Positions 6,354 through 28,972 of a DNA stretch of 32,000 nt are shown here, one piece after another; positions within the stretch are counted from its first letter, which is position 1, and each line of letters opens with the position of its first letter. The stretch spans positions 1 through 32,000 of the forward strand of contig CP076101.2 of the NCBI GenBank assembly GCA_015256915.3, read 5' to 3'. The notes under the pieces are model-generated. The model did no database searches, was not told the DNA's origin, and saw only the letters and a program-made list of their open reading frames with translations. Origin of the DNA: Candidatus Saccharimonas sp. Lineage in GTDB: Bacteria > Patescibacteriota > Saccharimonadia > Saccharimonadales > Saccharimonadaceae. Both the position numbers and the translations under genes were made by a program.

Positions 6354-9300
6354 TATGTGTCCTGTTTAATTAAATCTGGTGGATAGAAAGATGCCGATGT
6401 TGATGGTATTGCGGAACCCTTCGAAAGTTCGAAATGTAAGTGTGATCCAGATGAACAGCCATAGTTTCCAATAGTGCCAATATTCTGACCTTTTTTGACT
6501 TTCTCTCCAGTTTTAACCGAGTGTGAATCCATGTGCCAATAGAAAGAATATAAATCTCCTTTATGTTTAATAATTACGGCATGTGGGCCGCCCATCATAT
6601 CAGCTGTTCCATATGTACAACCATTGTATGGGGCTACATCAAAACCACCATTAACAACCTCACCATCAGCTACAGCATGCACTTGCGCTCCGTGTGTCCA
6701 CCCTTTTTCTTCATTGGCGAAATCAATAGCTGGGTGGTTTTGTCGAACTGGTGTATTAAAACCTTGGCCATCTGATACTCCCTGTATCTGTCCATTTTTA
6801 ACTTTAGTGTTTTTTAGCGGCCAAATAAATTCACCACTTAATTTTGATAGTTCTGGATCTATTCCTCCTTTTGAAGTGGATGAGTTATTATTTCCACGAC
6901 TTCCTCCGCTTGAGTCTGGCTTAAATTCTTCATTCATTCCCATCTCTGTTCGAAGATCAGTTAAAAATAGTGAATACCAGTTTGCTTTAGGATTTTTTTC
7001 AGTATTACAAATTCCACCACGAGTTTCATCGTCGTCATCTTCTGATGTTCCAATTGGTGATTTTCGGTTGAAACAATATTTATCATATTTTTTCAGGTCA
7101 CCACTCATTTTGAAGGTATCTAGTAGATTATTTGTTTCGCTACTATTATCTTTCTCTACAATATCACCCCATTCTTTAAGTTTATTAACAACTTCTTCAG
7201 TATCGGTTTCAGCGATACTCATATCAATACCAGTATAAACATTGCAAAAAATATCGGTTGCAGCACCAGTTTCTGTGATTGATTTATCTTCACAAGTTTC
7301 CATATTGGCCGCAAAATTTGCACTATTAGCTGCACTTGCTCCTGGCGTAATTGATGCGAATGATCTCTGTGCTCCACTAATTATAGATGGTAATAAACCT
7401 TTAATTGAACCTAAAGTCCCAACATAGGGCATCATATTACTTACAATTGAACCCAAGAAAGTATGCCGTGTAGTTGGATCAAATGGACTGTGGGTTTTTC
7501 GAATATCTTCAGCATTTTCAGCAATTTGGCGGTCGGTTTCTTGGCGAAATGCAACTGCTTGAGATTTAGTTAAAACTCCACCACTTCCAGCCATTGAATT
7601 CTTTGACATTAATGCTGCAGATCCGGACATTATAGCGTTTCCAAAATTCTCTCCAGTTGTTGAGTTATTTAGGATTGTGCTGGTTAAAGCTTCACTTACA
7701 TATTTAGAAACTACACCCATGGCTTGATCTTTTAGTATTTCAACGGCAACAGAAAGAGCCAATCCTAATGCTACTCCCCATGCTGCCACTTTTACAACTT
7801 CACCGATGCATCCTAGAAAACCAGTACCCATACATTTGAGTATTGTTAGCGATATTTGAGCTATACCTACTGCTACAGTAGCTATACCTGCAACTTTACA
7901 GCTTTGTCGTATAAACCAACCCACCATTCCTGTAGTTAATGTATTCATTAAACTTGCGAACCATCCAGTAATTCCAACCTGGTAGTCCTTTGCTGAATCA
8001 TCTAGTTTCGAAATGCGATCATCATAAGCTACTGCTCGCCAACCTTGTGATTCAGTGGCGCTTTTAATACGATCGTTATTTGATGTAGAATCTGCAAAAA
8101 AAGCAAAAGCATTTTTTAGTCTTGAAGTATTAGAATTTTTACTGTCAGGATTTTTATTTTCTTGAGAATCTTTTCTATTAGCAATCCCCATTAAATTATT
8201 GCCTTGCGCTGTAACTTCTTGCTGGGTTGCTTCTCCAGCTTTAATTTTTGATGCCATTGAGAGGAAAGACAAACCAAATTGAGCTAACACTTCCACTTTA
8301 GCTATTTTAGCAACGCTCCAACCCATTGATACTAATGCATAAACTCCACAAACTTTATCTACCGCATTTAAACCATTCAAAGCACTACTTGCTCCTTCAA
8401 GTATTTCCAACCCCATAGCTGCTTTTTCAGATACACTTTGTGCACCTTTCTTGAGCTTATCTTTATATGTTTTTAGTTTTTCTTTAACTTTTCTAGTTCC
8501 TTTATCACCTTTTTGTGCTTTATTTTTACCTTCATCGTCAACATCTTCTTTGTCACCTGATAATTTTTTAGAATCAGTTTCCCCATCTTTACTATGGTCG
8601 TTTGCTGTTTTCTTTATATCCTCATCAATTTCTTCTTCGGTTTTACCTTTATTGTCTTTTTTGGCTTTTCGAAAGTTAAACCAACCCTTGAGCTTTTGCC
8701 AAGATTTATCAAGAAAAGATGCAAAACGACCGCTAAAACCACGGCGAAAAGCTTGCCGCACATCTGGGTTTTTAGTTAAAATATTTTTAATATCCTTAGA
8801 AGAATTTTTTATTTCAATATTTTTCCCATCTTTAATGTAGGTTAGTTTTGAAATTTTTTTCCTTCCAAATAAGCTTTCCTTCTCATCTAAATCAACTTTA
8901 AAACCAGCTTTTTCAAGATTTTTGATGTTTCGGTCTGTTACTTTTGACATTCGGCAAACTAAGCCGGCTGGACTACAATTAGTACCTTTTATTTTTAGCT
9001 TCATCACTTTAACAGAGCGATTATTCATACTTGTTGAGGCGGAATTGAGTTTTTCGGTAATAATTTCTTGAATATGAACTGGTGCAAGTGAAGCAATTCC
9101 TGTTGAAATTACAAAAATAAATGCACCACCACCACCAAGAAGGCCGCCAGTTGCCGCCATTGCTCCTTTATTTTTGAAGAATGATTTTGCACGGTTTTTC
9201 CAACCGCCTCCTGCTGAGTTTGCTGCGTTTCGAGATTTATGAGTTCCACCGCCGCTCACATTGTTTTGCCAGCCACCAGATTGGACTGGTTTTTGATCTT

Positions 9301-9520
9301 TCGAAAGTGTTTCTGAGTCGCTAATGTCGGAATTTGAAGTAGTAGAAGTTGAAGAATTTTCGGCATTCGCCAAAGCAGACGGATTATAACCGTCATTTCC
9401 TCGAATAACTTCAGCGTTTCCCCATCTACTTTTTGCTCGTTCGAGCGCAGATTGATTCGAATCACTCAAGTCGCTAAAATCAAGATTTTCATCTCTTTCG
9501 AAATCTCTAGCTGCTCCCAT
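6353..9520 (-). CDS. Large polytopic membrane protein with a C-terminal M23 (LytM-type) peptidase domain
   Basis: 1055 aa. Ser/Asn-rich N-terminus, Gly-rich TM segment, Lys/Asp/Glu-rich linker, several central TM helices. C-terminal M23 motifs HPAIDFA (HxxxD) and SGSHLHFEL (HxH). Confidence 0.75.
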   Translation of the reverse strand: MGAARDFERDENLDFSDLSDSNQSALERAKSRWGNAEVIRGNDGYNPSALANAENSSTSTTSNSDISDSETLSKDQKPVQSGGWQNNVSGGGTHKSRNAANSAGGGWKNRAKSFFKNKGAMAATGGLLGGGGAFIFVISTGIASLAPVHIQEIITEKLNSASTSMNNRSVKVMKLKIKGTNCSPAGLVCRMSKVTDRNIKNLEKAGFKVDLDEKESLFGRKKISKLTYIKDGKNIEIKNSSKDIKNILTKNPDVRQAFRRGFSGRFASFLDKSWQKLKGWFNFRKAKKDNKGKTEEEIDEDIKKTANDHSKDGETDSKKLSGDKEDVDDEGKNKAQKGDKGTRKVKEKLKTYKDKLKKGAQSVSEKAAMGLEILEGASSALNGLNAVDKVCGVYALVSMGWSVAKIAKVEVLAQFGLSFLSMASKIKAGEATQQEVTAQGNNLMGIANRKDSQENKNPDSKNSNTSRLKNAFAFFADSTSNNDRIKSATESQGWRAVAYDDRISKLDDSAKDYQVGITGWFASLMNTLTTGMVGWFIRQSCKVAGIATVAVGIAQISLTILKCMGTGFLGCIGEVVKVAAWGVALGLALSVAVEILKDQAMGVVSKYVSEALTSTILNNSTTGENFGNAIMSGSAALMSKNSMAGSGGVLTKSQAVAFRQETDRQIAENAEDIRKTHSPFDPTTRHTFLGSIVSNMMPYVGTLGSIKGLLPSIISGAQRSFASITPGASAANSANFAANMETCEDKSITETGAATDIFCNVYTGIDMSIAETDTEEVVNKLKEWGDIVEKDNSSETNNLLDTFKMSGDLKKYDKYCFNRKSPIGTSEDDDDETRGGICNTEKNPKANWYSLFLTDLRTEMGMNEEFKPDSSGGSRGNNNSSTSKGGIDPELSKLSGEFIWPLKNTKVKNGQIQGVSDGQGFNTPVRQNHPAIDFANEEKGWTHGAQVHAVADGEVVNGGFDVAPYNGCTYGTADMMGGPHAVIIKHKGDLYSFYWHMDSHSVKTGEKVKKGQNIGTIGNYGCSSGSHLHFELSKGSAIPSTSASFYPPDLIKQDT

Positions 9521-9583
9521 TTTATTCCTAAAACTCTATAATTTATAAATTAATTTTACCACATTTACGCTTGTGCTTCAAGC

Positions 9584-11443
9584 TTAAAATAATTCATTCG
9601 GGTCGGCGTAACCGTTAGTCATCATATTATCACCCTGACGGTTTTTTGAACTATTTGGGCTGGTTGAAATAAGCTGGTGTTCTGTGTCGCTGGCGATGAT
9701 TTGAATATGAACGTGATTTTGGCCTGCAAAGAATAATCCTTGCCCAACTGGGAAGTTCGAAAGGCGCTTTCGTTCTTCTTCAGTTAATTTAAAGACATCA
9801 CTCAAAACATCAACCGCACTTGAAGACTGTTTTAAAAGTAGTTGCATTGAGCTGTTCGAAACAATCGCTCGACCCATTTTCGAACCCATAAAGTCTTCGA
9901 CGTCCTGCGAAATTGTAGTAAGGCCAAGATAATATTTTCGAGCGCGTTTTGCTAAACTGAACAAGAAGTTTGCCGAATCGTCGTATTTCATTAACTGCCA
10001 AGCTTCATCCACAATAAGCATTCGTTTTTTCTGTTCAGAACGCACAATATTCCAGATGTGAGAAAGTACGATATACATCGCAACTGGGCGAAGTTCATCT
10101 TCAAGGTCGCGAATATTAAATACAACCATCGAGTTATTGATATCGATATTTGATTGTTGCGAGAAAATTCCTGCGAAAGTTCCAGTTGTGTATTTTCGAA
10201 GGCGTTGCGCTAAGCTTGGGCCACTACCATCCATATGAACCAAGGTGTCATAAAGATTATGAATTGTTGGTGGTGTTGAATTATGCGTGAGAGGATCTGA
10301 AGTGATTCCAGCTCGAGCATAAGTGTCAATAATTGCTTGATCGAGGTCAGCTTCTTCATTTGGTGAAAGTCCAATTGATTGCCCTGCACTAGTTCCGCCA
10401 AGCATTAAACGGAATAGACCGTGAAGAGTTACGATATTTGCACGAAGCGCGTTATCTGCTTCTTCGGCATCAATAACGTGCGGTAAATCGAAAGGATTAA
10501 TTCTAACATCCGAGTTTAAGCTGAGGCGAATATAACTTCCGCCAACAGCATCGCTCAATTTTTGATATTCATTTTCTGGGTCAATAATTAATACCTCTGC
10601 ACCCATCATCATTGTTCGAAGAGCTTCAAGTTTCACTGTGAAAGATTTACCAGCACCAGATTTCGCGAAAACCACCATATTTGCGTTTTCAAGCGTATAG
10701 CGGTCAAAAATTACGAGCCCATTATTGTGCATATTAACGCCATAAAGAACACCATTTTCTTGGGTTAAATCGGCGGAAGTAAATGGAAATGAAGTTGAAA
10801 TTGCGCCTGTGTTCATATTTCGACGAATTTGAAGTTGGTCAGAGAGTTGTGGCACGGTAGATTTTAAGCCTTGTTCCTGCTGGCTTGACGCAACTTTCGA
10901 AAACAGCATTTGTTGGCCAAGCATTGTTTCAACTTTGCTTCGAACGAAATTAAGCTCATCAAGACTGTCGGCGTAAATTGTTAAATATAAGCCAAAACGG
11001 AAGAATTTTTCAGCACCAAGTTGTAATTGATCTCGGAGTTCTTCAGCATCATTCAGAGCAGCTTCAAGCGCTGGATCTCGGGTTCTACCTTTTTCATTAT
11101 TAATCGAAAGATCGGCTTCAAGCTGAGTAACTTTTCGACGAAGGTTTTTCATGACAATTTCAGTTTCAACAGGATAAATAAACATTGAAACATCTAAAAC
11201 TTCATCAGCATTTAAGATTGGTGAAGCCCATCCAGTATAAAGCTGGCGTGGATAACCATAAACATAAATTGTTTGACCATATTTTGTGCCAAGTCGAAAA
11301 TATCCTGAGTGAAATTCAAGACTTGATGGTGCGATTAAATCTCGCAAAGTGTTAATACCAGTTAAAAACGCTTGTTCAACTTCAGCTTGTTCTTGTGCTC
11401 GCTGTTGGGCTGCAATATCAACCGCATCTTTTTTCTTCGCCAT
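9584..11443 (-). CDS. virB4: VirB4/TrsE/PrgJ-family type IV secretion ATPase
   Basis: 619 aa. N-terminal domain typical of Gram-positive VirB4 (YFRLGTKYGQTIYVYGYPRQLYTGW). Walker A (AKSGAGKSFTVK) and Walker B (RMLIVDEAWQL). Confidence 0.9.
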   Translation of the reverse strand: MAKKKDAVDIAAQQRAQEQAEVEQAFLTGINTLRDLIAPSSLEFHSGYFRLGTKYGQTIYVYGYPRQLYTGWASPILNADEVLDVSMFIYPVETEIVMKNLRRKVTQLEADLSINNEKGRTRDPALEAALNDAEELRDQLQLGAEKFFRFGLYLTIYADSLDELNFVRSKVETMLGQQMLFSKVASSQQEQGLKSTVPQLSDQLQIRRNMNTGAISTSFPFTSADLTQENGVLYGVNMHNNGLVIFDRYTLENANMVVFAKSGAGKSFTVKLEALRTMMMGAEVLIIDPENEYQKLSDAVGGSYIRLSLNSDVRINPFDLPHVIDAEEADNALRANIVTLHGLFRLMLGGTSAGQSIGLSPNEEADLDQAIIDTYARAGITSDPLTHNSTPPTIHNLYDTLVHMDGSGPSLAQRLRKYTTGTFAGIFSQQSNIDINNSMVVFNIRDLEDELRPVAMYIVLSHIWNIVRSEQKKRMLIVDEAWQLMKYDDSANFLFSLAKRARKYYLGLTTISQDVEDFMGSKMGRAIVSNSSMQLLLKQSSSAVDVLSDVFKLTEEERKRLSNFPVGQGLFFAGQNHVHIQIIASDTEHQLISTSPNSSKNRQGDNMMTNGYADPNELF

Positions 11444-13758: not shown

Positions 13759-16464
13759 CTATTTCTTGTCTTTAATATTTTCAGGTTTCCAATTTCCACC
13801 CAAAACTTTATCATAAAGATCTCTATTATTTCGTTCAATCTCTTTAAGCATTTTGCGAATTTCAGCACCTTGCACAGCATTGAGTTTTCCGTATTCTGAA
13901 GGGTTTTCATTAATCGCCTTAACACTTTCGAGTGTGGATCTAATGGTTTCATTCGACATATTCGAAATTGCTGATTTATCCCAAATGATTTTCATTGCGT
14001 CATTTGAAGCTTTAATAATTTTATCATCTGAGACATTTTTAGCGTAATTGTCGTGAATGGCATTATAAACTTCTTTCGAATTCATACCATTTACAGCAAT
14101 ATTTTCAAGTGCTGCACCACCAATAAATTGAAGATCGTCTTTTTTGGTTTTCTTGAAAGCTTCAACCAAGTCGTTGCGGTTAGCGTTTAATTCCCCACCA
14201 ATTTCAGTTTTACCAAGTGAATCAATAGCACCTTTTAAGTCGGTCGTTCCCATAAACTTTTCGGCTGTTGCAGCGCGTAAGTTTTTAGTAATTTCGAAAT
14301 TAATTCCATCTTTCTGGATTTTTTCACCCATATTTTTCGAAAAGATTTCGCTATAATCACTACCTGAAAAATTAAGTGATTTTGTGAGGTTTGTGAGTGA
14401 TTCGACTTCTTCTTTGTTCTCTTTCGAAGCTGCTACTAAAGAACTTGCAAGCGCCGAGACTTTTCCAGCTTCACCACGCACACCAGATGCGGTTTCAAGC
14501 AAGTCGTTGCTATAGCGCATATTATTTGCCATTGCATTATTGAGTGAAAGATTATTATTCTTTTCAGCCAGTTTAAGAGCATTTGTTTGATTCATATTAT
14601 CAACAAATCGAAGTGCTTGCTCGCCAAATTTCCCACGTAGAGCTTTTAGTGATGCTTCACTTAAATCAACAACACCAGTAATGTTTCCATTATCATCTTT
14701 TTTAAGCGTTGAATTAAATAATTCTGCTTTAATTTGCGAAAGTCCAGCATTTGTGCTTGCGGTTGCACGATTGAGAGCTTCGGTAGCTAACATTTCTTGA
14801 TACTGAGTATCTGAATTTATTAAATGCTTTTTGCGAGCATTATAATACATGTTTGAAAATGCATTCGAACCTTCTGGCATATTTTGAATTGCATCTCGTC
14901 TTTCATTTTCAAGCTCCGCAAAGCGTTCTTTTTGATATAATTCTGCAATCGATTTTGAAGCACCTATTCGACGTTGGCGGTTGTAGTTCATCTGATTAAT
15001 TCGTACAGGAAGTGAATTTGGCTTTTCTGCAATTGCACGATTTCGATACATTTCTTGGTTTTCTGAAAGGAATTTCTTTACACGATCAACCGGACCTTTA
15101 TTCGGATTATTGATAATTCCGGCAAATTTACCAAGCAGACTACCGCTAATTCGCATAATTGTTGGCGTAATCGCTAGCGGCACAACTTGTACTACGGCAC
15201 CAAGTAAGAAAATTAAAAAGCTACCGTTCGAACTTGCAATAATTGTTGTTCCAATTAATTGAGAACCCCCAAAAAGAAGTGAAATTAAAGGATACATCAC
15301 GAGCATTGTTGTGAATAAATCTTTCCATTTTTCGAACCATTTTTCAGTATTTGGTAGAATATTCGCTGCAAATGCAAGTGGTGCTAAGAAAACTAAAACA
15401 ATAATGATTGCCTGTCGTGCAGCTAAAATTACTAAAGCTACAACTGCCGAATAAATTACTGCAACTAGTGCTCCAAGAATCATCATTACTGCAGCACCAA
15501 TATTACCCATAGTTGCAACCGTTACAGTGTAAGCACCATAAGCCACCACGCCAGTTCCGCTCAAAACCGCAGCGGTCATATTTGACCAATCAAGATTAGC
15601 TGTTTTTACCTTATTTTCACCACCACTGTTAAAAATGCTATCTCTAATTCCAATTAAAAGATTTTGAGTTTGTGCTCCTAAGATATTCGAAATATCAACT
15701 AGAATTGCACAAATATAATAGGAAACATTAATTAAAATTGCTGCAATAATTAGTTTTGGTAATAATTTTTTAATTCCGTAATTACTAATCCCAAAACCTG
15801 TTATTTGCGAATAAATTACGAAAACAAATCCAATCACAAAAAAGACGTTTGCGACATTTCGCATATAATCCCAAACTTGAAAAAGACCAGATTGATTTGA
15901 TGTATAAAGTGGTTGTACTCGTAAAAATGCTTGGAGCCAGTCATAAATACCGTCCATCCATTTCGAAATTGTATTAGCAACCATACAAACCATCCAGCCG
16001 CCCCCACCTTCAACACTACAAAGTGACTTATCTTCGTCTTTCGAAACGCCATCAACTTTAACATCTTGTGCTTCACCGTTTTGTTTTACATTCCCGAGTG
16101 CGCTTACATCAAATGAATAAATTTTTCCGCTTGAAGTATCATTCTCATTATCAAGAGCGATTACTGTTGTTTTGTTTTCACCAGCATTTAATGAAGAATT
16201 TTCGGCATAAAGTTTTTTTGAACGAATTGATTCTGGAAATCTTGAAGTGTCAGAAACTTTTGAGTATGTTTTTCCGTTATATGTTATGCCATTTTTTGAA
16301 GAATCTGTCCATTTTGCTCCGTCAAGAGCAAGAGCGATATTCGAATTAAAAAATCCCAAGATTGCGACTACTGTAAAGATCGCGACAAAAAATCCATTTC
16401 GAAAATCTTGAGTTTTTGCTTTTTTAAACCTCGCCAAAGTTTGCATATGACCTGATTTTATCAT
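13759..16464 (-). CDS. VirB6/TrbL-like polytopic T4SS channel protein with a large hydrophilic C-terminal domain
   Basis: 901 aa. N-terminal TM/signal anchor, an ectodomain of about 150 aa, about 6-7 TM helices (residues about 195-470), then a soluble tail of about 430 aa. First gene of the minus-strand operon. Confidence 0.65.
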   Translation of the reverse strand: MIKSGHMQTLARFKKAKTQDFRNGFFVAIFTVVAILGFFNSNIALALDGAKWTDSSKNGITYNGKTYSKVSDTSRFPESIRSKKLYAENSSLNAGENKTTVIALDNENDTSSGKIYSFDVSALGNVKQNGEAQDVKVDGVSKDEDKSLCSVEGGGGWMVCMVANTISKWMDGIYDWLQAFLRVQPLYTSNQSGLFQVWDYMRNVANVFFVIGFVFVIYSQITGFGISNYGIKKLLPKLIIAAILINVSYYICAILVDISNILGAQTQNLLIGIRDSIFNSGGENKVKTANLDWSNMTAAVLSGTGVVAYGAYTVTVATMGNIGAAVMMILGALVAVIYSAVVALVILAARQAIIIVLVFLAPLAFAANILPNTEKWFEKWKDLFTTMLVMYPLISLLFGGSQLIGTTIIASSNGSFLIFLLGAVVQVVPLAITPTIMRISGSLLGKFAGIINNPNKGPVDRVKKFLSENQEMYRNRAIAEKPNSLPVRINQMNYNRQRRIGASKSIAELYQKERFAELENERRDAIQNMPEGSNAFSNMYYNARKKHLINSDTQYQEMLATEALNRATASTNAGLSQIKAELFNSTLKKDDNGNITGVVDLSEASLKALRGKFGEQALRFVDNMNQTNALKLAEKNNNLSLNNAMANNMRYSNDLLETASGVRGEAGKVSALASSLVAASKENKEEVESLTNLTKSLNFSGSDYSEIFSKNMGEKIQKDGINFEITKNLRAATAEKFMGTTDLKGAIDSLGKTEIGGELNANRNDLVEAFKKTKKDDLQFIGGAALENIAVNGMNSKEVYNAIHDNYAKNVSDDKIIKASNDAMKIIWDKSAISNMSNETIRSTLESVKAINENPSEYGKLNAVQGAEIRKMLKEIERNNRDLYDKVLGGNWKPENIKDKK

Positions 16465-16552
16465 AATTTAACCCTTTTGTCAACCTTAAAATTAAGTTTT
16501 TTAGAATAAAACACTTGCTTTTTCCCTAAAAATGGTTTAAAGTATAATTATC

Positions 16553-17026
16553 ATGGTAAACAAAATAAAAAATATAATAATAGTTGGGTTAGTTTTGATG
16601 AGCTTTTTTACGTCTTTTCAGAGTGTTTTCTCTTTGAATTATACTTTTGCGAAAGAAGTGGTTCAAGATAGTAATGGTAATTATGTGGACCCTAGTGATT
16701 TAAAATCAAAATCGGATTCAAACAGTAATTCTGACAGTAAAAAAAATAAAGATACTCCCTCTACTGAAGCAAAAACTGCAATTCTCCCTTCAGACTGGAA
16801 AATTGAAGATATTTTAAATATGGTTTTAGTTGTAGTAACTACTGGTGTTGGAATTGCAGCAGTTGGCTCGATTGTTTTTGCTGGCGTTCTATATATTACC
16901 GCTCGTGATAATGCTGCACAAGTTTCGAAAGCTAAAACAATGATTACGAATACAATTATTGGTATTATAGCTTATATTTTAATGTGGGCGTTCTTAGAAT
17001 GGATTATTCCAGGAGGAATTTTATAA
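16553..17026 (+). CDS. T4SS pilin-like (VirB2/TrbC-type) small membrane protein, paralog 1
   Basis: 157 aa: signal peptide, variable Ser/Asp/Asn-rich region, then the shared two-TM core (AGVLYITARDNAAQVSKAKTMITNTIIGIIAYIL). No Shine-Dalgarno sequence. TATAAT at 16543-16548. Confidence 0.7.
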   Translation: MVNKIKNIIIVGLVLMSFFTSFQSVFSLNYTFAKEVVQDSNGNYVDPSDLKSKSDSNSNSDSKKNKDTPSTEAKTAILPSDWKIEDILNMVLVVVTTGVGIAAVGSIVFAGVLYITARDNAAQVSKAKTMITNTIIGIIAYILMWAFLEWIIPGGIL

Positions 17027-17454
17027 TGAAAAAGATTATTCTAGCGATTTTTATAACTTTTATGCCAGTTTTATATTTTTCGAATAATGCTTATGCGGCT
17101 GGTTGTAACGATAATCAAACTTTTTTCGGTCTCCCCGCTTGGTATCGTGGATTAACTAAATCTGGCGAAGGAGGATGTCAAATTAAAAATATTGGGCCAT
17201 CTGGAAAGGGTGAAGTTACTTTAGAACAGTTTGTCTGGACAGTGGTTGCGAATGTTATTGATATGGCCTTTCGAATCGCTGGTGTCGCTGCAATAGGATT
17301 TATTATTTATGCAGGTTATCAATATATGATTGCTGTTGGTGATCCAGGAAAACTTGCGGGTGCTAAAAAATCACTAACCAATGCGATAATCGGACTAGTG
17401 ATTGCGGTTCTTGCTTCAACAATAGTAACGTTTATATTAGGAATTTTAGGATAA
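17026..17454 (+). CDS. T4SS pilin-like small membrane protein, paralog 2
   Basis: ATG at 17026 overlaps the paralog 1 stop (TAATG) and follows AGGAGGA at 17011-17017. Signal peptide (MKKIILAIFITFMPVLYFSNNAYA), Cys pair, core (AGYQYMIAVGDPGKLAGAKKSLTNAIIGLVIAVLA). The GTG start at 16984 in the ORF track is rejected. Confidence 0.75.
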   Translation: MKKIILAIFITFMPVLYFSNNAYAAGCNDNQTFFGLPAWYRGLTKSGEGGCQIKNIGPSGKGEVTLEQFVWTVVANVIDMAFRIAGVAAIGFIIYAGYQYMIAVGDPGKLAGAKKSLTNAIIGLVIAVLASTIVTFILGILG

Positions 17455-17774
17455 TGAAAGAATATAAATTTTTAGCAGAAGCATCCTTTGATAAATCAAA
17501 AGTATTAAACGGAATTGATACTTCGAATAAAAACAAAGCTAGTGATGCTTCGATGCAGAATGCTTTCAATACTGCTTTTATCTGGGCTGGAATTATCTGT
17601 GTAATTATAATTATCGTGGCTGGATTAACATTTATAACGGCTGCCGGAAATCCAGGAACAATTTCGAAAGCAAAATCTGCACTAATTTACGCTTGTGTAG
17701 GTATTGTTGTAATTATATCGGCTGCACTAATTGTTAACTTAATTCTTGGCGGATTACTAACGGGGTCAATATAA
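17454..17774 (+). CDS. T4SS pilin-like small membrane protein, paralog 3 (no obvious signal peptide)
   Basis: 106 aa. Start overlaps the upstream stop (TAATG). Core AGLTFITAAGNPGTISKAKSALIYACVGIVVIISAALIVN. The N-terminus is hydrophilic. Confidence 0.7.
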   Translation: MKEYKFLAEASFDKSKVLNGIDTSNKNKASDASMQNAFNTAFIWAGIICVIIIIVAGLTFITAAGNPGTISKAKSALIYACVGIVVIISAALIVNLILGGLLTGSI

Positions 17775-18190
17775 TGAGAAAAATAATTTTAATAATTAGT
17801 ATTTTATTTTCAATAATTCTATCACCTATCGCTTTTGCGGAAGGTGGAACTAACGGGACTAATGGTAGTGGAGGAACATTTAACGCTTGTAAACATGTTG
17901 TTTCTGGAAAGACTGCAGTTTGTTCTGGTGATTCGAAAAATGCTACAAATATTGCTAAAAATATAATCTCTATCCTCCTGTGGGTTGTTGGTATAGCGGC
18001 GGTTATTGTTATTATTTACGCAGGAATAACATTTGTAACAGCAGCCGGCAATCCTTCGAAAATTTCTCAAGCTAAAACTATGTTAATCTATGCTGTTGTT
18101 GGTTTAGCGGTTGCAATTCTTGCTTATGCGATTGTTAATTTCGTTATTAACACTTCAAGTGGAAAAGGGGTTGGCGGAGGATCATCTTGA
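17774..18190 (+). CDS. T4SS pilin-like small membrane protein, paralog 4
   Basis: 138 aa. Start overlaps the upstream stop. Signal peptide, Cys pair (ACKHVVSGKTAVC), core AGITFVTAAGNPSKISQAKTMLIYAVVGLAVAILAYAIVNFVIN. Confidence 0.8.
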   Translation: MRKIILIISILFSIILSPIAFAEGGTNGTNGSGGTFNACKHVVSGKTAVCSGDSKNATNIAKNIISILLWVVGIAAVIVIIYAGITFVTAAGNPSKISQAKTMLIYAVVGLAVAILAYAIVNFVINTSSGKGVGGGSS

Positions 18191-18338
18191 AGCTAAGGCA
18201 TATCTGTCGAATCTAATAATTTAAGTGACTTAACTAATATTGAATCGCAAAGCAAAAAAATGGTGAAAATAATTCAGGATAAAGTTCGAGCGGTTCGAAC
18301 AGTTCAAATAATAATTAAAACAATATAAGGAGAATAAA

Positions 18339-18728
18339 ATGAAGAAAATTTTAATAACTTTTGGATTAATCCTTGCGGTAGTTGGCTCTTTTGCCTTCAA
18401 TGCTGGATTTTTCGAAAAACAAGCTTATGCAAATAGTGCAGCAGATTTAATTAAACAAGGTGCAGATTCAACTGGTCAAAAAGATACTCGTTCAGCTGGT
18501 GATATTGCTAAAGATGTTGTAAGTATAATGTTCTTTATTATTGGTGTTATGGCAGTTATTATGATTATTTGGGGCGGAATTCGATATGTTCTTTCAGCCG
18601 GAAATAGTGCTGCTCTCACTAGTGCAAAAAATACAATTGTCTATTCTATTATAGGTTTAATTATTGCAATCCTTGCATATGCAATTGTGAACTTTGTTAT
18701 TAATACAGTTGCGGGTGGTAATCGGTAA
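18339..18728 (+). CDS. T4SS pilin-like small membrane protein, paralog 5
   Basis: 129 aa. AAGGAGA Shine-Dalgarno sequence upstream. Signal peptide, core GGIRYVLSAGNSAALTSAKNTIVYSIIGLIIAILAYAIVNFVIN. Confidence 0.8.
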   Translation: MKKILITFGLILAVVGSFAFNAGFFEKQAYANSAADLIKQGADSTGQKDTRSAGDIAKDVVSIMFFIIGVMAVIMIIWGGIRYVLSAGNSAALTSAKNTIVYSIIGLIIAILAYAIVNFVINTVAGGNR

Positions 18729-18786
18729 TCATAAGACTTCAAACTTAATTTTGTTTAGTTGAATGGATAACTAATAATTAAAATAC

Positions 18787-18814
18787 TTGCAAAATAGTAA
18801 AAATTTGATATAAT
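18787..18814 (+). promoter_or_regulatory. Sigma70-like promoter for pilin paralog 6
   Basis: TTGCAA (18787-18792), 16 nt spacer ending in TGa, then TATAAT (18809-18814), about 40 nt upstream of the ATG at 18854. Confidence 0.5.
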
Positions 18815-18853
18815 TTAAGTATATATAATTTAAGAAAGGAAATGTAATTTAAA

Positions 18854-19270
18854 ATGAAAAATATTGTAAAAATGGCTCTATTGACCGCCGCAACAATATT
18901 CGCTGTTGGTGCTACTACATTTGCAACAATTCCAGCTTACGCCGCTGATTGTAAAGTTACTGGCGGTTTGAAGTCTGCTGATAGCTGTGCTAAAGGTGTT
19001 CAAGAAGAAAACGGCGGTCCGACAAGCTTGTTTGATGGCGACTCTCCAATTTTCACAACAGCAATTAATATTATGCTCTTCATTATTGGTATTCTTAGTG
19101 TGATCATGCTTATTTACGGTGGAATCCGATATGTTCTTTCGAGTGGTGATTCTGGAGCTGTTCAAAATGCTAAAAATACAATTATGTATGCTATTATCGG
19201 TCTTGTAATTGCAATCCTTGCTTACGCAATTGTTAACTTCGTTATTCATTCGATTACTAATAAAGAATAA
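18854..19270 (+). CDS. T4SS pilin-like small membrane protein, paralog 6
   Basis: 138 aa. Signal peptide, Cys pair (DCKVTGGLKSADSC), core GGIRYVLSSGDSGAVQNAKNTIMYAIIGLVIAILAYAIVNFVIH. Its 3' half is close to paralog 5 at the nucleotide level. Confidence 0.8.
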   Translation: MKNIVKMALLTAATIFAVGATTFATIPAYAADCKVTGGLKSADSCAKGVQEENGGPTSLFDGDSPIFTTAINIMLFIIGILSVIMLIYGGIRYVLSSGDSGAVQNAKNTIMYAIIGLVIAILAYAIVNFVIHSITNKE

Positions 19271-20653: not shown

Positions 20654-20743
20654 GGAGAGGTGGCCGAGTGGTTGAAGGCACCGGTCTTGAAAACCGGCAT
20701 GCGGTAAAACGTATCGAGGGTTCGAATCCCTCCTTCTCCGCCA
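20654..20743 (+). tRNA. tRNA-Ser (anticodon UGA), CCA encoded
   Basis: Hand-folded cloverleaf. Acceptor GGAGAGG/CTTCTCC, anticodon stem CCGGT/ACCGG with loop cuUGAaa, long variable arm, T arm GAGGG-TTCGAAT-CCCTC, discriminator G and CCA. Confidence 0.9.
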
Positions 20744-21596: not shown

Positions 21597-21673
21597 GCAC
21601 CTGTAGCTCAGCTGGATAGAGCGTTGGCTTGCGGAGCCAAAGGTCGTAAGTTCGAATCTTGCCAGGTGTACCA
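21597..21673 (+). tRNA. tRNA-Arg (anticodon GCG), CCA encoded
   Basis: Hand-folded. Acceptor GCACCTG/CAGGTGT, D arm GCTC-AGCTGGATA-GAGC (A20 present), anticodon stem TTGGC/GCCAA with loop ttGCGga, T arm GTAAG-TTCGAAT-CTTGC, discriminator A and CCA. Confidence 0.85.
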
Positions 21674-23229: not shown

Positions 23230-23319
23230 GGAGAGGTGGCCGAGTGGTTGAAGGCGCACGACTCGAAATCGTGTATGCGGGCAACCGTATCGGGGGTTCG
23301 AATCCCCCCTTCTCCGCCA
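23230..23319 (+). tRNA. tRNA-Ser (anticodon CGA), CCA encoded
   Basis: The acceptor and D regions are nearly identical to the tRNA at 20654. Anticodon stem CACGA/TCGTG with loop cuCGAaa, long variable arm, T arm GGGGG-TTCGAAT-CCCCC, then G and CCA. Confidence 0.9.
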
Positions 23320-23866: not shown

Positions 23867-24226
23867 TTTAAAAAAACTGCTATTTTTCTAATTCCGAGAA
23901 TACATTTGAAATAAAAAAGAATGCTGACAAATCAAGATTCTTTTTATGTTCACATTGATAAACATTATAAAAATTTGTCTGTTTAGCTACCAAAAAGCTA
24001 CCAATAGATTTGCAATTTTTAAAAAATAAATTAGTAGTACTATATTTAAATACCTAGTTATCTAAAAGAATAAATTTACTAGATTAGTAAATTAAATTAG
24101 ACTTTGTCAGTAATGACATTGCCATGGTTTGTTGTTATATAATCATTTATGGTTATTGAAGGAGAATACGCCAACAACTACTATGTGCTTTTTATATATC
24201 CTAGATGATTTTTACAAACACCCAGA

Positions 24227-26089
24227 TTATATATTAGCTAGCTTTGATTTGTAAAATTCTAACTCATCGTTAATTCTCATAACATAAAAAATGACTATTT
24301 GGAGCAACTCTAAGTAATTTTTTTGATGTTCCTCTTCACTTTTATAAGAAAATTTTCCATGAGAGAATTTATTTCGAATTTTCAACCCATTACCATATTT
24401 TTTATCATCCAAAATATAAGATAAATAATTACTTTCATATTCAGAAAAAAGCTTATCTGAATATTCACAATACCCTTTCTTACAAAGGTCTTCTGCAATG
24501 TCTAGTATCAATTTATCTTTATAGTATAGGCAATACGTACCTGATTTCCATAATTTATTCAAAATGTTAATTTCTTGGAAATTTGAAAACTTTATTACAT
24601 CGTTTGATAGTTTTAAAAAATTCTTTTCTATTAGAACATTTATTTGTCTTACCTGATAATCATCAAAATCTGTAATCTTCACACCTTCTTTTATATGTTT
24701 GAAGAAGGTTTTATGTTCTTTTTTCGATGAAATTAAGCTAAGTGGACTTTGGTCATAAAAAAGCGCAGAGAACAATGCAGAATTATCAGGAGTATTGTTC
24801 AATTTGATAAATTTTTTCTCATTGAATGATTTTAATGAAGCATAAGAGGAGGCTTTAGATTTAATCTCTAATAAATCTTGGTTGATTTCCCTATGTCTAA
24901 AAAAAAGTTCATATTGGTCTAGGATACTATCCATCTCACAGATTATGGATTTCCCTCTTTCATAATAAGAAGATTCTTTATTGGAAGCGTGGAAGTGAAA
25001 TCCTTTTATATTCAATTTAGTTTCTAAATAAATGTTGAAGTACCAATTAATAATCTCCTCAATATCAATATCATTTTTCTTTAGATACTCAAAATATGCA
25101 TAAAATAATAAACCATAAGAATTTTTTAAATGAGAATCGTAGTCTTCGAAATGAGCATTTGATTTTGGGGAAAAGAAACGAGTGAAGCTGAATGTTTCTT
25201 CATTCGCAACTAGCCAAGGCAATCCCGTTTCATGATTAAAGAAGCCAAGTAAATAAAAATTATTTAATAATGTCGGAAAATCATGATGTTCATCTAGTAT
25301 AATTTTATTTAAAAGAATACCATTCTCAATAGGCTTACATAATTTATCAGAATCTAAAGGCTTGATGACAACTGATATAGAGTAATGTATCCCTTCATTA
25401 GTTTCAAAATGTTTTTCCCAAAATTCCTTACTTTTTCTTTTAGCTAAAAGCTTAACCTCATCATCAAACTCATATTTGCTTAATTTTTTATAATCAACAA
25501 TTGATTGTAAATAATTTGGGTTAATATTATCTGTCTGACAATATTCTATTGCTAGATTATTTATCTCTTCATTTGTGATACCTAACTTAATGTATAAACC
25601 ATTAGAATCTATGAATTTTCCTGATTGATGATTCAAGAAAAATTCTATATTTCTAGACAGAGAGAGAAAATTTTCTTTGATAACTTGCGGAAATAGGTCA
25701 ATCAGTTGTGTAACATTTTTAAGATTTATTGTCTGGATATTGTATTTTTTTATATATGATTCAAACTGACTAACATCATCTTTATTAATTTTTTCTAAGT
25801 CTAGTACTAACTCCCAGAAGACATCTTTATAAAAAACATCAATACTATCATAGTCTATTTCAAAAATGGTAATTGGGAAATTCGCGGATAAATCGTTATG
25901 AAACTTTCTAATTAGATATTTGAATTTAGAAAATTGATTTTCTTTTTTAATTAATTTCAGGATTAAATAGGTTTCTATTAAATTATTAATTTCAGTCGAT
26001 GGCTGATATGCTTTAATGTAGTTCAGAGCTATATCGTATTGGTGTGGTTCTATTACATTGTTAGGAGCATGAAATCTTTTATGTTGCAT
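24227..26089 (-). CDS. Uncharacterised 620 aa protein with a C-terminal HEPN-like Rx4H (RNKFSH) motif, downstream partner of the Type IIL RM gene
   Basis: Uninterrupted 620 aa ORF. AAGGA ribosome-binding site about 9 nt upstream of the ATG. 78 nt downstream of, and co-oriented with, the RM gene. Very AT-rich (sampled lines about 22-25% GC). The peptide GLKIRNKFSHG (R572-H577, nt 24359-24376) followed by a helical hydrophobic segment resembles the HEPN catalytic signature. No Walker A motif. Confidence 0.5.
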   Translation of the reverse strand: MQHKRFHAPNNVIEPHQYDIALNYIKAYQPSTEINNLIETYLILKLIKKENQFSKFKYLIRKFHNDLSANFPITIFEIDYDSIDVFYKDVFWELVLDLEKINKDDVSQFESYIKKYNIQTINLKNVTQLIDLFPQVIKENFLSLSRNIEFFLNHQSGKFIDSNGLYIKLGITNEEINNLAIEYCQTDNINPNYLQSIVDYKKLSKYEFDDEVKLLAKRKSKEFWEKHFETNEGIHYSISVVIKPLDSDKLCKPIENGILLNKIILDEHHDFPTLLNNFYLLGFFNHETGLPWLVANEETFSFTRFFSPKSNAHFEDYDSHLKNSYGLLFYAYFEYLKKNDIDIEEIINWYFNIYLETKLNIKGFHFHASNKESSYYERGKSIICEMDSILDQYELFFRHREINQDLLEIKSKASSYASLKSFNEKKFIKLNNTPDNSALFSALFYDQSPLSLISSKKEHKTFFKHIKEGVKITDFDDYQVRQINVLIEKNFLKLSNDVIKFSNFQEINILNKLWKSGTYCLYYKDKLILDIAEDLCKKGYCEYSDKLFSEYESNYLSYILDDKKYGNGLKIRNKFSHGKFSYKSEEEHQKNYLELLQIVIFYVMRINDELEFYKSKLANI

Positions 26090-26167
26090 ATCTGTGATAT
26101 CCTTCTTAAATTTGCGCGTTTCTATGTGATGCTTAAAATAATTGAGTATATTTTGAAGAATACCGTA

Positions 26168-28972
26168 TTAATTTTTAGTTGACTCTTCATACATCTCAAA
26201 TAATCTTGCTACTGTTTCACTTTTTGTTAACCAAGTCTTCTTACCATCGACAACTTTCGTCATGCCATAAGCTTCCATGACGGCTTTGTCGTTAGCTTGG
26301 TGTGCTTTTCTGAGTTCGACTGGCATGGTCAATTCATCATAGAGGTCAGCTAGCGAACTTTCTGGATAGAGCGCACGTGCATCGAGAATTGCTTGAGCAG
26401 TTTTAGAGATTTTACTCTTCTGCTCCTCAGTCAATTCAGGCCAAGGGAAATTATTATAAACAATGTCTTTTGAATATCTGTAATCAGATTTCAAACGACC
26501 AGATACTGTCCTCATCCATGCCATATGGACATTTGATGTCAATATTCCTAAATCAAGTAAATCTGCATCAGGCACTATCAAAGTTCCCATAACTGGAATT
26601 GTTTTATCATCTAAAAAACCAATTGGAACATATTTTCTTCTTTCAGAAGAAACACAAGGAATAATTAGATATTTATCAGGGTTTAATTGCTCTCTAAATA
26701 GTGTTGGTGTATTTGCTAATTTTAATGATTCAGAAGTATTCGCATTGATACGAGCTTCTCTACATTTTTCAACTCTATCCAAAACTATCGGCATTGAACG
26801 GAGTTCTTTAGGTGTGATTCCTACAAGCCACAAGCAATAGCGTTCTTTATTTTGAATAAATTCCTTTGCACCAACCATTCGCTTAATCCACTTTGCAGAT
26901 TCAGGAGATGATTTGATAAAGTCGTCATACTCCGTGGCTTCAATTTTTAGATGATTATAGTCACATGGCTTATTTGGAGCAATCATTGGCTTAGCACCAC
27001 TAATTGGCTTATTTCTACTTTCTATAAAGATATTTTCAGCTTCAATCTGATAAGCATTTATATTACTTACTTTAGATTCACTTCCATTATCATAAATAAC
27101 TTTATTCGTTGTGACCGATGTAGAACTGAATCCTACAATGATACAATGAACATGAGCTTTTAAGTTTGCATCATTATTCCAAATAAAGGATTTATAGACA
27201 AAATCAATTTCATTACCCATATCAAAGATTAGTGGCCATAGAATAGAGATTTGCTCTCCTTGCATGATTGAGTTGGTCGATACAAATGCGCTCTTGATAC
27301 TTGTACCTTCCATGAATTTAGAAGCTAACAGGTACCAACTAGCAACAAAGTCTAATTTTCTATATTTCTTAGTGTAGGGAGAAAATACGACATCCATATC
27401 TTTCTTTTGTTCAGGTGTTGAATATTTTGAGCCAACAAAAGGCGGATTCCCAATAATATAACTCAGCCTATCTTTAGGTACAATTGTTTCCCAATCAATC
27501 TTTAAAGCATTTCCTTCAACAATGTTTGTATAGGACTTAAGTGGCAAGAAATCAATATTCGCAAACACAATATCTTTAGTTTCTTCCAGCATCTGACTTT
27601 CTGCAATCCAGAGAGCCGTTTTAGCAACAGAAACCGCAAAGTCATTGATCTCGATACCATAAAATTGGTTCAGTTGGACTTTGACAAGTTCTTGTCCGAC
27701 GTCAAGCGCAATAGTGTCCCCCATATAGAGCTTAATGGCTTCATTTTCTAAGCGTCTAAGAGAAACGTATGTTTCGGTTAAGAAATTTCCAGAACCACAA
27801 GCCGGGTCAAAGAATACTAGACTCGCTAGTTTTGATTGAAACTGTTTTGCTTTTTGTTCAACGATTTTAGGCTGCTTAAATTGACGAATCTCATTCAATT
27901 CATCTTTTAACTCATCTAAGAAGAGTGGATCAATAACTTTATGGATATTCTCAATAGAGGTATAATGCATCCCGCCACTACGACGTGTTTCGGGGTTGAG
28001 AGTTGACTCAAATACTGCACCAAAAATAGTAGGGCTGATTTCTGACCAGTCGAAACTAGAAGAAGCATGCTCCAAAATTAACTCACGTAGTTCATCGGTA
28101 AAATTAGGGATTTCCAAATTATTCTCGGCAAACATTCCTCCATTAACATAGGGGAAAGCAAGAAGTTCCGTATCCAAATACGGATCACGTTCTTTAATTG
28201 GCGTATCTAGTATAGAAAAGAGGTCAATTAAAGCACGCCTAAAATCACGACTACTAAAACGGGCAAGGTAATCATGAAACACCATGTGATGGCCAAAAAT
28301 ACCAGCATCTTCAGCATATAGACAAAATACTAATCGGACTATAAGTTGATTGATAGCATGAAGGCTTTCGGGGCTATCCGGATTAATATACTGCTTAAGA
28401 AGGCTTTCATAAATCTCACCGACAATCTCACCGGCTTCGATAGAAACCTTCATTTCACGTTCTAAGTGTTCATTAGTTTTGTCAATTAAAAATTCTAAAC
28501 GATAGGCTTCTTTATCCAAATCAGCAAGTTTAATGACTTTAGGTTCGCCGTTTGGTTGCTCCATATCATAAACATAGAACTCTTTAAAATTACAAGTCAC
28601 AATCCACCGTGGACGTTGAGAATATGGCAAGTTAGCAGAATATCGTTTAGCCTGTTGAAACGGTGTAAGGTAAGTTCCATCAGACTGTTTTATCGCCTTA
28701 TTAAGGTCTTTGTTTGAACCTTTTTGTTCAATTAATACTTTTGTTTTATCAATAAAGCCATCTATAAAACTAGTATGGTCAAGCATCACTGTATCTTCAA
28801 ATGTTATATACTCACTTGGGTTTTCTACTCCATAAACAGATTGAAGTAAGTCTAACCAGAAAGACTGACTATCTTGCCTTTCGTTTCCTCTATTTCCCCA
28901 GCGTTTAATAAATGCTTTAGCTTGCTTTTTTTGTTCCCGGATATTATTCACTTTGTTCTTTCTAACTACCAC
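26168..28972 (-). CDS. MmeI-family Type IIL (Type IIG-like) fused restriction endonuclease / N6-adenine DNA methyltransferase
   Basis: 934 aa single polypeptide. N-terminal nuclease-like D...EXK arrangement (SFIDGFIDKTKVLIEQKG). Gamma-class MTase motif I (FFDPACGSGNFL) and motif IV (IIGNPPFVGS). Long C-terminal target-recognition region. Apparent GTG start 4 nt after the pgi stop. Confidence 0.85.
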   Translation of the reverse strand: MVVRKNKVNNIREQKKQAKAFIKRWGNRGNERQDSQSFWLDLLQSVYGVENPSEYITFEDTVMLDHTSFIDGFIDKTKVLIEQKGSNKDLNKAIKQSDGTYLTPFQQAKRYSANLPYSQRPRWIVTCNFKEFYVYDMEQPNGEPKVIKLADLDKEAYRLEFLIDKTNEHLEREMKVSIEAGEIVGEIYESLLKQYINPDSPESLHAINQLIVRLVFCLYAEDAGIFGHHMVFHDYLARFSSRDFRRALIDLFSILDTPIKERDPYLDTELLAFPYVNGGMFAENNLEIPNFTDELRELILEHASSSFDWSEISPTIFGAVFESTLNPETRRSGGMHYTSIENIHKVIDPLFLDELKDELNEIRQFKQPKIVEQKAKQFQSKLASLVFFDPACGSGNFLTETYVSLRRLENEAIKLYMGDTIALDVGQELVKVQLNQFYGIEINDFAVSVAKTALWIAESQMLEETKDIVFANIDFLPLKSYTNIVEGNALKIDWETIVPKDRLSYIIGNPPFVGSKYSTPEQKKDMDVVFSPYTKKYRKLDFVASWYLLASKFMEGTSIKSAFVSTNSIMQGEQISILWPLIFDMGNEIDFVYKSFIWNNDANLKAHVHCIIVGFSSTSVTTNKVIYDNGSESKVSNINAYQIEAENIFIESRNKPISGAKPMIAPNKPCDYNHLKIEATEYDDFIKSSPESAKWIKRMVGAKEFIQNKERYCLWLVGITPKELRSMPIVLDRVEKCREARINANTSESLKLANTPTLFREQLNPDKYLIIPCVSSERRKYVPIGFLDDKTIPVMGTLIVPDADLLDLGILTSNVHMAWMRTVSGRLKSDYRYSKDIVYNNFPWPELTEEQKSKISKTAQAILDARALYPESSLADLYDELTMPVELRKAHQANDKAVMEAYGMTKVVDGKKTWLTKSETVARLFEMYEESTKN

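Follow-up and report, generated by a model that had tools for sequence, protein, structure and literature searches.

Do a restriction enzyme gene and a gene for a HEPN-like protein that follows it closely form one coupled defence unit, or are they two separate genes that share a place? This question is raised by two minus-strand open reading frames (ORFs) in a stretch of 32,000 nucleotides (nt) from Candidatus Saccharimonas sp. (contig CP076101.2, positions 1 to 32,000, hereafter the window)—one for a restriction–modification (RM) enzyme of the MmeI family and one for a protein of 620 amino acids (aa):

26168..28972, minus strand: MmeI-family Type IIG/IIL restriction–modification enzyme, 934 aa (Pfam, PADLOC, motifs)
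24227..26089, minus strand: 620-aa PDC-S56-family protein, mostly α-helical (PADLOC, AlphaFold)

An initial annotation, made from the letters of the window alone, had described these two same-strand ORFs, their coordinates, and the 78-nt gap between them, all of which are reproduced here. It had further proposed that the second protein may act as an RM-coupled back-up or guard effector. The analysis points elsewhere: the locus is rather likely a small defence island in which two modules, each autonomous and mobile on its own, lie side by side, namely the MmeI RM enzyme and a single-gene PDC-S56 candidate.

The 620-aa ORF had been said to fit no family, and Pfam and NCBIfam give no match on the full protein. 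It is nevertheless a full-length member of the PADLOC family PDC-S56, as model PDLC05039 aligns with residues 3–615 over its positions 7–643 of 649 (E 1.2e-108, 362.5 bits). PDCs are "guilt-by-embedding" candidates curated from genes embedded in BREX, DISARM, or Type I RM systems, and all 145 entered PADLOC as candidates, not as proven defences (Payne et al. 2024, bioRxiv 10.1101/2024.01.29.577857). An exhaustive search finds 1001 representative clusters (50% identity) at E ≤ 1e-3 and 273 at E ≤ 1e-30; nearly all representatives are 620–670 aa long and align end to end, which corresponds to a constant architecture of ~640 aa. Scanning one genome per species places members in Bacillota, Actinomycetota, Bacteroidota, Cloacimonadota, Chloroflexota, and one DPANN archaeon. 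Members also occur on nine plasmids, whereas the phage records scanned hold none; every annotated copy is labelled "hypothetical protein".

The HEPN superfamily comprises all-α up-down helical bundles with an Rx4–6H motif just before the last helix, which act as metal-independent ribonucleases (RNases). For the 620-aa protein, the following segments are of relevance in this respect, all read from the minus strand:

24359..24376, minus strand: the Rx4H motif R572-N-K-F-S-H577 (translation, conservation)
24230..24457, minus strand: HEPN-like C-terminal segment, residues ~545–620 (secondary structure, conservation, Pfam fragments)
24455..24880, minus strand: two winged-helix-like H-H-H-E-E units, residues ~404–545 (AlphaFold secondary structure)
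25400..26089, minus strand: all-helical N-terminal region, residues ~1–230 (AlphaFold secondary structure)

The peptide GLKIRNKFSHG, from which the HEPN proposal started, is found as described, with H577 43 residues before the C-terminus, and a motif scan of the translation agrees that the protein has no P-loop. Taken by itself, a single Rx4–6H motif is not significant here, because 64% of shuffles that preserve the composition of the protein hold at least one. RNxxxH appears in 2.8% of these shuffles. The motif gains its meaning only through conservation among relatives. This conservation was assessed in two separate sets, 72 genome-derived members and 61 diverse representatives. Six residues—E385, K426, E552, R572, N573, and H577—are conserved in 72/72 of the former, and N573, H577, and Y592 are invariant in the latter, with R572 conserved in at least 90%. 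The homologs hence do hold the R/H pair on which the initial annotation had made its HEPN idea depend.

AlphaFold models the full protein with a pLDDT of 90.3 and a pTM of 0.87 as mostly helical, and residues 296–620 alone with a pLDDT of 93.6. Within the modelled C-terminal segment, a helix at residues 550–560 is followed by a short helix carrying R572-N573-x3-H577 and by a long terminal helix at 585–619. When the last ~85 residues of the 72 members are compared with Pfam, sub-threshold matches fall to HEPN_RiboL-PSP in 19 members (best E 4.2e-4), DUF4209 in 13, HEPN_Apea in 7, and HEPN_Cthe2314 in 5, and no non-HEPN family is matched by more than two members. Full-length members give scattered weak matches, the commonest being DUF4209 (5/61), which maps onto the motif region and scores 13–17 bits versus a cutoff of 22.3. 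DUF4209 is the C6orf70 HEPN family, which occurs in R-M related operons (Anantharaman et al. 2013, PMC3710099). Together, motif, conservation, and fragment matches make it likely that the C-terminus of the 620-aa protein is a HEPN domain. The N-terminal helical region is the least conserved part (mean top-residue frequency 0.30–0.43, compared with 0.51 near the HEPN motif); it may serve as a sensor or bind a partner. Structure comparison of the C-terminal half with the Protein Data Bank (PDB) by Foldseek gives only weak winged-helix matches to PadR, MarR, and IclR (E ≥ 0.1). A 14-3-3/TPR likeness of the whole model in the same library is not significant and was set aside as noise, and the viral BFVD library returns nothing. 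Searching the PDB with profiles from alignments of the full length, the C-terminal half, or the last 85 aa gives noise or nothing; a match to the HEAT repeats of CNOT1 (E 0.016) belongs to this noise.

The question of coupling can be addressed by asking how each gene fares without the other. Intact copies of the 620-aa gene without MmeI are found at 73–88% aa identity in Gemella sanguinis, Streptococcus salivarius, S. mitis, and further Streptococcus contigs—among them loci L013, L015, and L101. The solo copy of G. sanguinis (88% aa and 90.5% nt identity) is present on more than 90 contigs and adjoins a ribosomal-protein operon. One Streptococcus copy, at 85%, lies beside Nmad2/Nmad3 genes, and for the S. 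salivarius, S. mitis, and related copies the homology to the window is limited to the 620-aa gene itself. At the Gemella locus L093, all that is left of MmeI is a relic of 110 nt from its 5′ end (5071–5180, 92.7% identical) upstream of an intact 621-aa gene, with GyrI-like and ClbS/DUF1706 genes occupying the place of the MmeI body; relic and substituted genes together indicate a gene replacement inside the cassette.

MmeI likewise occurs alone, 87–89% identical in nt over the whole gene: once in S. parasanguinis, on a plasmid of ~13.5 kb with Mob and Rep genes, and once in S. lutetiensis, where it lies in a phage-related island together with integrase, primase-like, and Paratox genes and is preceded by a small helix-turn-helix (HTH) gene. 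The two genes also differ in base composition. Their guanine–cytosine (GC) content is 26.7% for the 620-aa gene and 36.1% for MmeI in the window, the rest of which has 33.8%, and the difference of ~26% versus 36–37% recurs in every host checked, which suggests an assembly from separate modules of different origin. An obligate link between restriction enzyme and back-up effector is not supported by these data, as each gene is kept intact alone at 85–90% identity.

Nevertheless, the pair itself is not confined to the window. MmeI, a 78-nt spacer, and the 620-aa gene follow one another in the same order in S. parasanguinis (L001) and Streptococcus sp. HSISM1 (L016), at 77–85% DNA identity to the window and with homology ending at the cassette borders. 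The HSISM1 copy bears an intact MmeI next to a family gene that two frameshifts split over three frames (8001–9864), a sign of either pseudogenisation or faulty assembly. Overall, the evidence for the cassette is outweighed by that against an obligate pair.

The cassette has spread horizontally. Its transfer region comprises window positions 23881–28936, with relatives at L001, L016, L093, and L119–L125, and between Ca. Saccharimonas and oral Streptococcus or Gemella the nt identity reaches 87–89% for MmeI and 79–90% for the 620-aa gene. Since the cassette is common to Bacillota at 77–90% nt identity, a recent exchange between Saccharibacteria and oral Bacillota is indicated by sequence comparison. 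This sharing also weakens the argument of the initial annotation that the finding gains from a lineage with poorly charted defence systems.

A survey of 80 distant family loci extends this picture beyond close relatives. An MmeI-like neighbour is found in 1/80, the HSISM1 locus; no Type I RM gene lies within 8 kb in 74/80; and RM neighbours overall amount to ~7/80, these being raw counts without a genome-wide background rate for comparison. No partner of the family gene is conserved across the 80 loci, the largest neighbour cluster being HsdR with 6/80. Some members are nonetheless embedded in Type I RM operons. Three loci (L027, L028, and L057) show the order hsdM–hsdS–family gene–...–hsdR with upstream gaps of −20 to +6 nt, and at L024 the family gene overlaps hsdR by 4 nt; this position between Type I hsd genes is the embedding pattern that defined the PDCs. 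Adjacency to RM genes, which the initial annotation wanted checked, is thus seen for these embedded members and not for most of the loci surveyed. Further neighbours—genes for integrases, serine recombinases, HTH proteins, ApeA-HEPN, Schlafen/AlbA_2, TIR, and helicases—are typical content of variable or defence islands; an aggregated PADLOC scan of the neighbours yields mostly redundant Type I S-subunit models and is uninformative. On the Enterococcus hirae plasmid pHDC14-2.69K (L117), a 662-aa member, a TIR-domain gene, and a DEAD/DEAH helicase gene lie between small serine-recombinase (resolvase) genes, a region that looks like recombinase-shuffled defence cargo.

As a side observation on the Type I operons, one or two further uncharacterised ORFs stand between family gene and hsdR at L027 (9894–11395), L028 (9894–10870), and L057 (9924–10739). 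They encode about 150, 180–360, and 272 aa and may be additional embedded cargo.

Turning to the MmeI-family gene, its product carries the full set of five MmeI Pfam domains in order, in agreement with the Type IIL assignment of the initial annotation: MmeI_N (8.5e-37, residues 17–194), MmeI_hel (5.8e-21), MmeI_Mtase (8e-89), MmeI_TRD (3.2e-69), and MmeI_C (2e-21). They correspond to a PD-(D/E)XK nuclease N-domain, a helical spacer, a gamma-class N6-adenine methyltransferase, a target recognition domain (TRD), and a C-terminal domain, and the PADLOC model REase_MTase_IIG spans residues 10–933 with 1134.9 bits. The catalytic motifs named before are likewise readable in the translation—the nuclease motif as D71...E82-Q-K84, methyltransferase motif I FFDPACGSGNFL at residue 387, and NPPF motif IV at residue 509. 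Judged by its sequence, the enzyme is apparently complete and intact. The annotated ORF starts with a GTG at 28972; a second GTG at 28951, 21 nt downstream, gives 927 aa and is probably the true start, because it fits both the 924–929 aa of the Streptococcus orthologs and the onset of DNA conservation. MmeI-type enzymes cut ~20/18 nt from an asymmetric site, and methylation of a single strand protects the host. Their specificity appears to have been swapped here in the way typical of the family: the TRD segment (window 26671–27087; MmeI residues about 515–800) has no DNA homology to the S. parasanguinis L001 ortholog, with ~45% aa identity in this segment versus >90% in the nuclease and methyltransferase parts. 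For the plasmid and island copies, homology to the window spans the whole gene, TRD segment included.

How the second gene is expressed, and how it came to lie where it does, can be approached from the two noncoding segments that flank it:

26090..26167, minus strand: 78-nt spacer with the ribosome-binding site AAGAAGGA before the 620-aa ORF (sequence)
23881..24226, minus strand: conserved 3′ tail accompanying the 620-aa gene (homology with Gemella L093)

Gemella L093 is homologous to the window over positions 23881–26113, and most of the 78-nt spacer is also kept upstream of the solo copies L015 and L101. The 3′ tail contains a hairpin followed by a T-run at 23904–23955, likely a terminator. 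Scanning finds no minus-strand terminator-like site between the MmeI and 620-aa genes, and the promoter scan gives no signal above shuffled expectation, so that an internal promoter is neither supported nor opposed. The solo MmeI of S. lutetiensis (L125) has directly after its stop codon the same terminator-containing element that, in the window, comes after the 620-aa gene. Because of this position, the 620-aa gene, together with its spacer and 3′ tail, looks like a unit inserted between the stop codon of MmeI and the MmeI terminator, and hence would probably be read through from the MmeI promoter in the cassette.

This terminator-containing stretch belongs to a multi-copy AT-rich element of ~130–180 nt with the direct repeat TTGGTAGC(T)TTTTGGTAGCT plus a hairpin and T-run. 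Copies are seen at window 23881–24059, L001 12274–12383 and 13918–14093, L016 13913–14046, and L125 7788–7902. In Streptococcus islands, the element is found repeatedly where different gene cassettes end. It may be a terminator that they share, or an element of cassette junctions or of recombination.

If the C-terminal domain is a HEPN RNase, the 620-aa protein would most likely be a single-protein effector of the abortive-infection type, cleaving RNA through R572, N573, and H577. The variable N-terminal helices and the tandem winged-helix-like region might hold the nuclease off until an infection cue arrives, and activation might occur through a dimer in which two Rx4H motifs meet, in analogy with other HEPN enzymes. 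MmeI, a self-sufficient enzyme, and the 620-aa protein would then give layered yet independent protection.

Several results weigh against this interpretation. None of the Pfam HEPN matches of family members attains its gathering score, and Foldseek retrieves no HEPN fold from the PDB for either the whole model or its C-terminal half. Aligning the family by hhalign with the ApeA-HEPN profile from neighbouring loci is not significant, because the template profile is too shallow; the only local alignment, equally insignificant, sets LRNKYxHG on ARNDLAHEG of ApeA. Since the fold was not retrieved by Foldseek, the HEPN assignment is probable rather than proven: from the initial annotation, the RNxxxH signature stands as a hallmark of the family and the sequence points to HEPN, but structural comparison does not follow. 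PDC-S56 was not found by name in a literature search, and the family is a defence candidate. The rawness of the adjacency counts limits what the neighbourhood survey can say. Finally, the identical 78-nt spacing of the pair is kept in two phyla, which makes some functional synergy of the pair possible.

Such synergy would be strongest in a PrrC-like guard, where MmeI keeps the 620-aa HEPN protein silent and releases it when a phage inhibits or overwhelms restriction. The cassette with its 78-nt spacer in Ca. Saccharimonas as well as in S. parasanguinis and HSISM1, with homology stopping at its borders, would be expected of such a system, as would the lack of a terminator between the genes in the scan and the embedding of family members in Type I RM operons of distant genomes. 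There is also precedent in PrrC-EcoprrI and in RM-linked HEPN clades (PMC3710099). The guard reading nevertheless appears quite improbable, given that each gene is kept intact alone at 85–90% identity and that in HSISM1 an intact MmeI stands beside a twice-frameshifted partner. An MmeI-like neighbour in 1/80 and the lack of Type I RM within 8 kb in 74/80 speak against it as well, the protein bears no ABC-ATPase or P-loop module as PrrC and RloC do, and the GC contrast marks the genes as assembled from separate modules. A bolder variant, in which PDC-S56 proteins form a new class of RM-associated guards, deserves slightly less credence still; here, a HEPN RNase that lacks the ABC-ATPase of PrrC and RloC would use helical and winged-helix parts as its sensor, monitor the integrity of the adjacent restriction enzyme—MmeI in the window, Type I elsewhere—and trigger abortive infection once phage anti-restriction factors disable that enzyme.

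The 620-aa protein might, on the other hand, have no defensive role. Its gene could be selfish and serve addiction or stabilisation, or encode a HEPN protein of mobile elements that processes RNA or is regulatory, and proximity to RM genes would then reflect shared islands. Members on conjugative plasmids and beside integrases and recombinases fit this idea, as does the missing conserved partner among 80 loci, and PDCs are themselves described as candidates only (Payne et al. 2024). We regard it as unlikely, though with better prospects than a guard. The family has repeatedly been inserted in Type I RM operons with overlaps or very short gaps—and among Hma-embedded genes this pattern led to working defences with a high rate of success (Payne et al. 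2024)—and recognised defence genes (ApeA-HEPN, Schlafen, TIR) lie nearby. An addiction gene is further disfavoured as no antitoxin-like conserved small neighbour is seen: a search near the 620-aa gene for a small conserved ORF, a tandem repeat, or an Rfam RNA as antitoxin found none. A catalytically inert nucleic-acid-binding regulator, for instance one that controls the MmeI gene via the winged-helix-like domains, could draw on the weak matches to PadR, MarR, and IclR and on the existence of HEPN domains that are noncatalytic binders (PMC3710099). Yet R, N, and H of the catalytic-type motif are invariant across phyla, most family members have no RM neighbour to regulate, and solo MmeI copies manage without the 620-aa gene, which leaves this role a very slim chance.

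The locus can be compared with known systems. It shares with the PADLOC family PDC-S56 the full-length match to the hidden Markov model of a single-gene family sometimes embedded in Type I RM operons; the present copy differs in that it follows an MmeI-type (Type IIG) gene instead of lying inside a Type I, BREX, or DISARM system, and in that it comes from a genome of the Saccharibacteria. The restriction enzyme resembles MmeI of Methylophilus methylotrophus in the order of its five domains, the D...EXK motif, motif I DPACGSGNF, and motif IV NPPF, and the MmeI family in the exchanged TRD relative to a close homolog; its locus deviates by the extra defence-candidate gene that follows on the same strand. 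PrrC and RloC have in common with the 620-aa protein a C-terminal HEPN-type Rx4–6H motif, and some family members lie between hsd genes, as PrrC does. However, PrrC and RloC carry their own N-terminal ABC-ATPase with a P-loop, whereas the 620-aa protein has neither a P-loop nor an ATPase domain in Pfam or NCBIfam, and its N-terminus is predicted to be all-helical. PrrC is moreover near-obligately embedded in an RM operon and silenced by the RM enzyme; for the 620-aa family the RM linkage is facultative, and there is no evidence for silencing by RM, because both genes persist alone.

Among the HEPN families, RiboL-PSP-HEPN, C6orf70/DUF4209, ApeA, and Cthe_2314 share the RNxxxH before the last long helix and give sub-threshold Pfam matches, and association with RM operons is reported for DUF4209/C6orf70 and ApeA (Anantharaman et al. 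2013, PMC3710099). None of them shows the ~540 helical and winged-helix-like residues upstream of the motif, and their gathering scores are not reached. HEC-08 is an RM/Hma-embedded HEPN protein with histidine-dependent defence (Payne et al. 2024). The idea of RM-linked HEPN genes as a PrrC-like second line was put forward in 2013 for at least 16 HEPN clades (PMC3710099); the new architecture of an RM-coupled effector suggested by the initial annotation is therefore an older concept, and evidence for a new coupled system was not obtained.

An apparent orphan is hereby placed in a catalogued and widespread family of defence candidates, and R572 and H577 can be named as its probable catalytic residues, with E552, E385, and K426 likewise invariant. 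The high-confidence structure model, together with natural variants at 85–90% identity that bear the pair, the effector alone, or the RM enzyme alone, may serve the study of the family. The recent movement of the cassette between Saccharibacteria and oral Streptococcus or Gemella bears on how ultra-small episymbionts acquire immunity.

Around the cassette, the window contains further genes. The adjoining PGI gene encodes a product identical to QWB90990.1 of Candidatus Saccharimonas sp.; an empty insertion site was sought among the contigs with an identical PGI gene, every one of which carries the cassette. Three tRNA genes lie just downstream (20654–20740, 21597–21670, and 23230–23316), the nearest ~900 nt from the 620-aa gene. 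They may mark an integration hotspot, and no integrase is found near them. Positions 13759–19270 hold a TrbL_3-like gene of 901 aa and a 157-aa ORF, for which Pfam gives no match, followed by five small T4SS_pilin paralogues arranged in an array.

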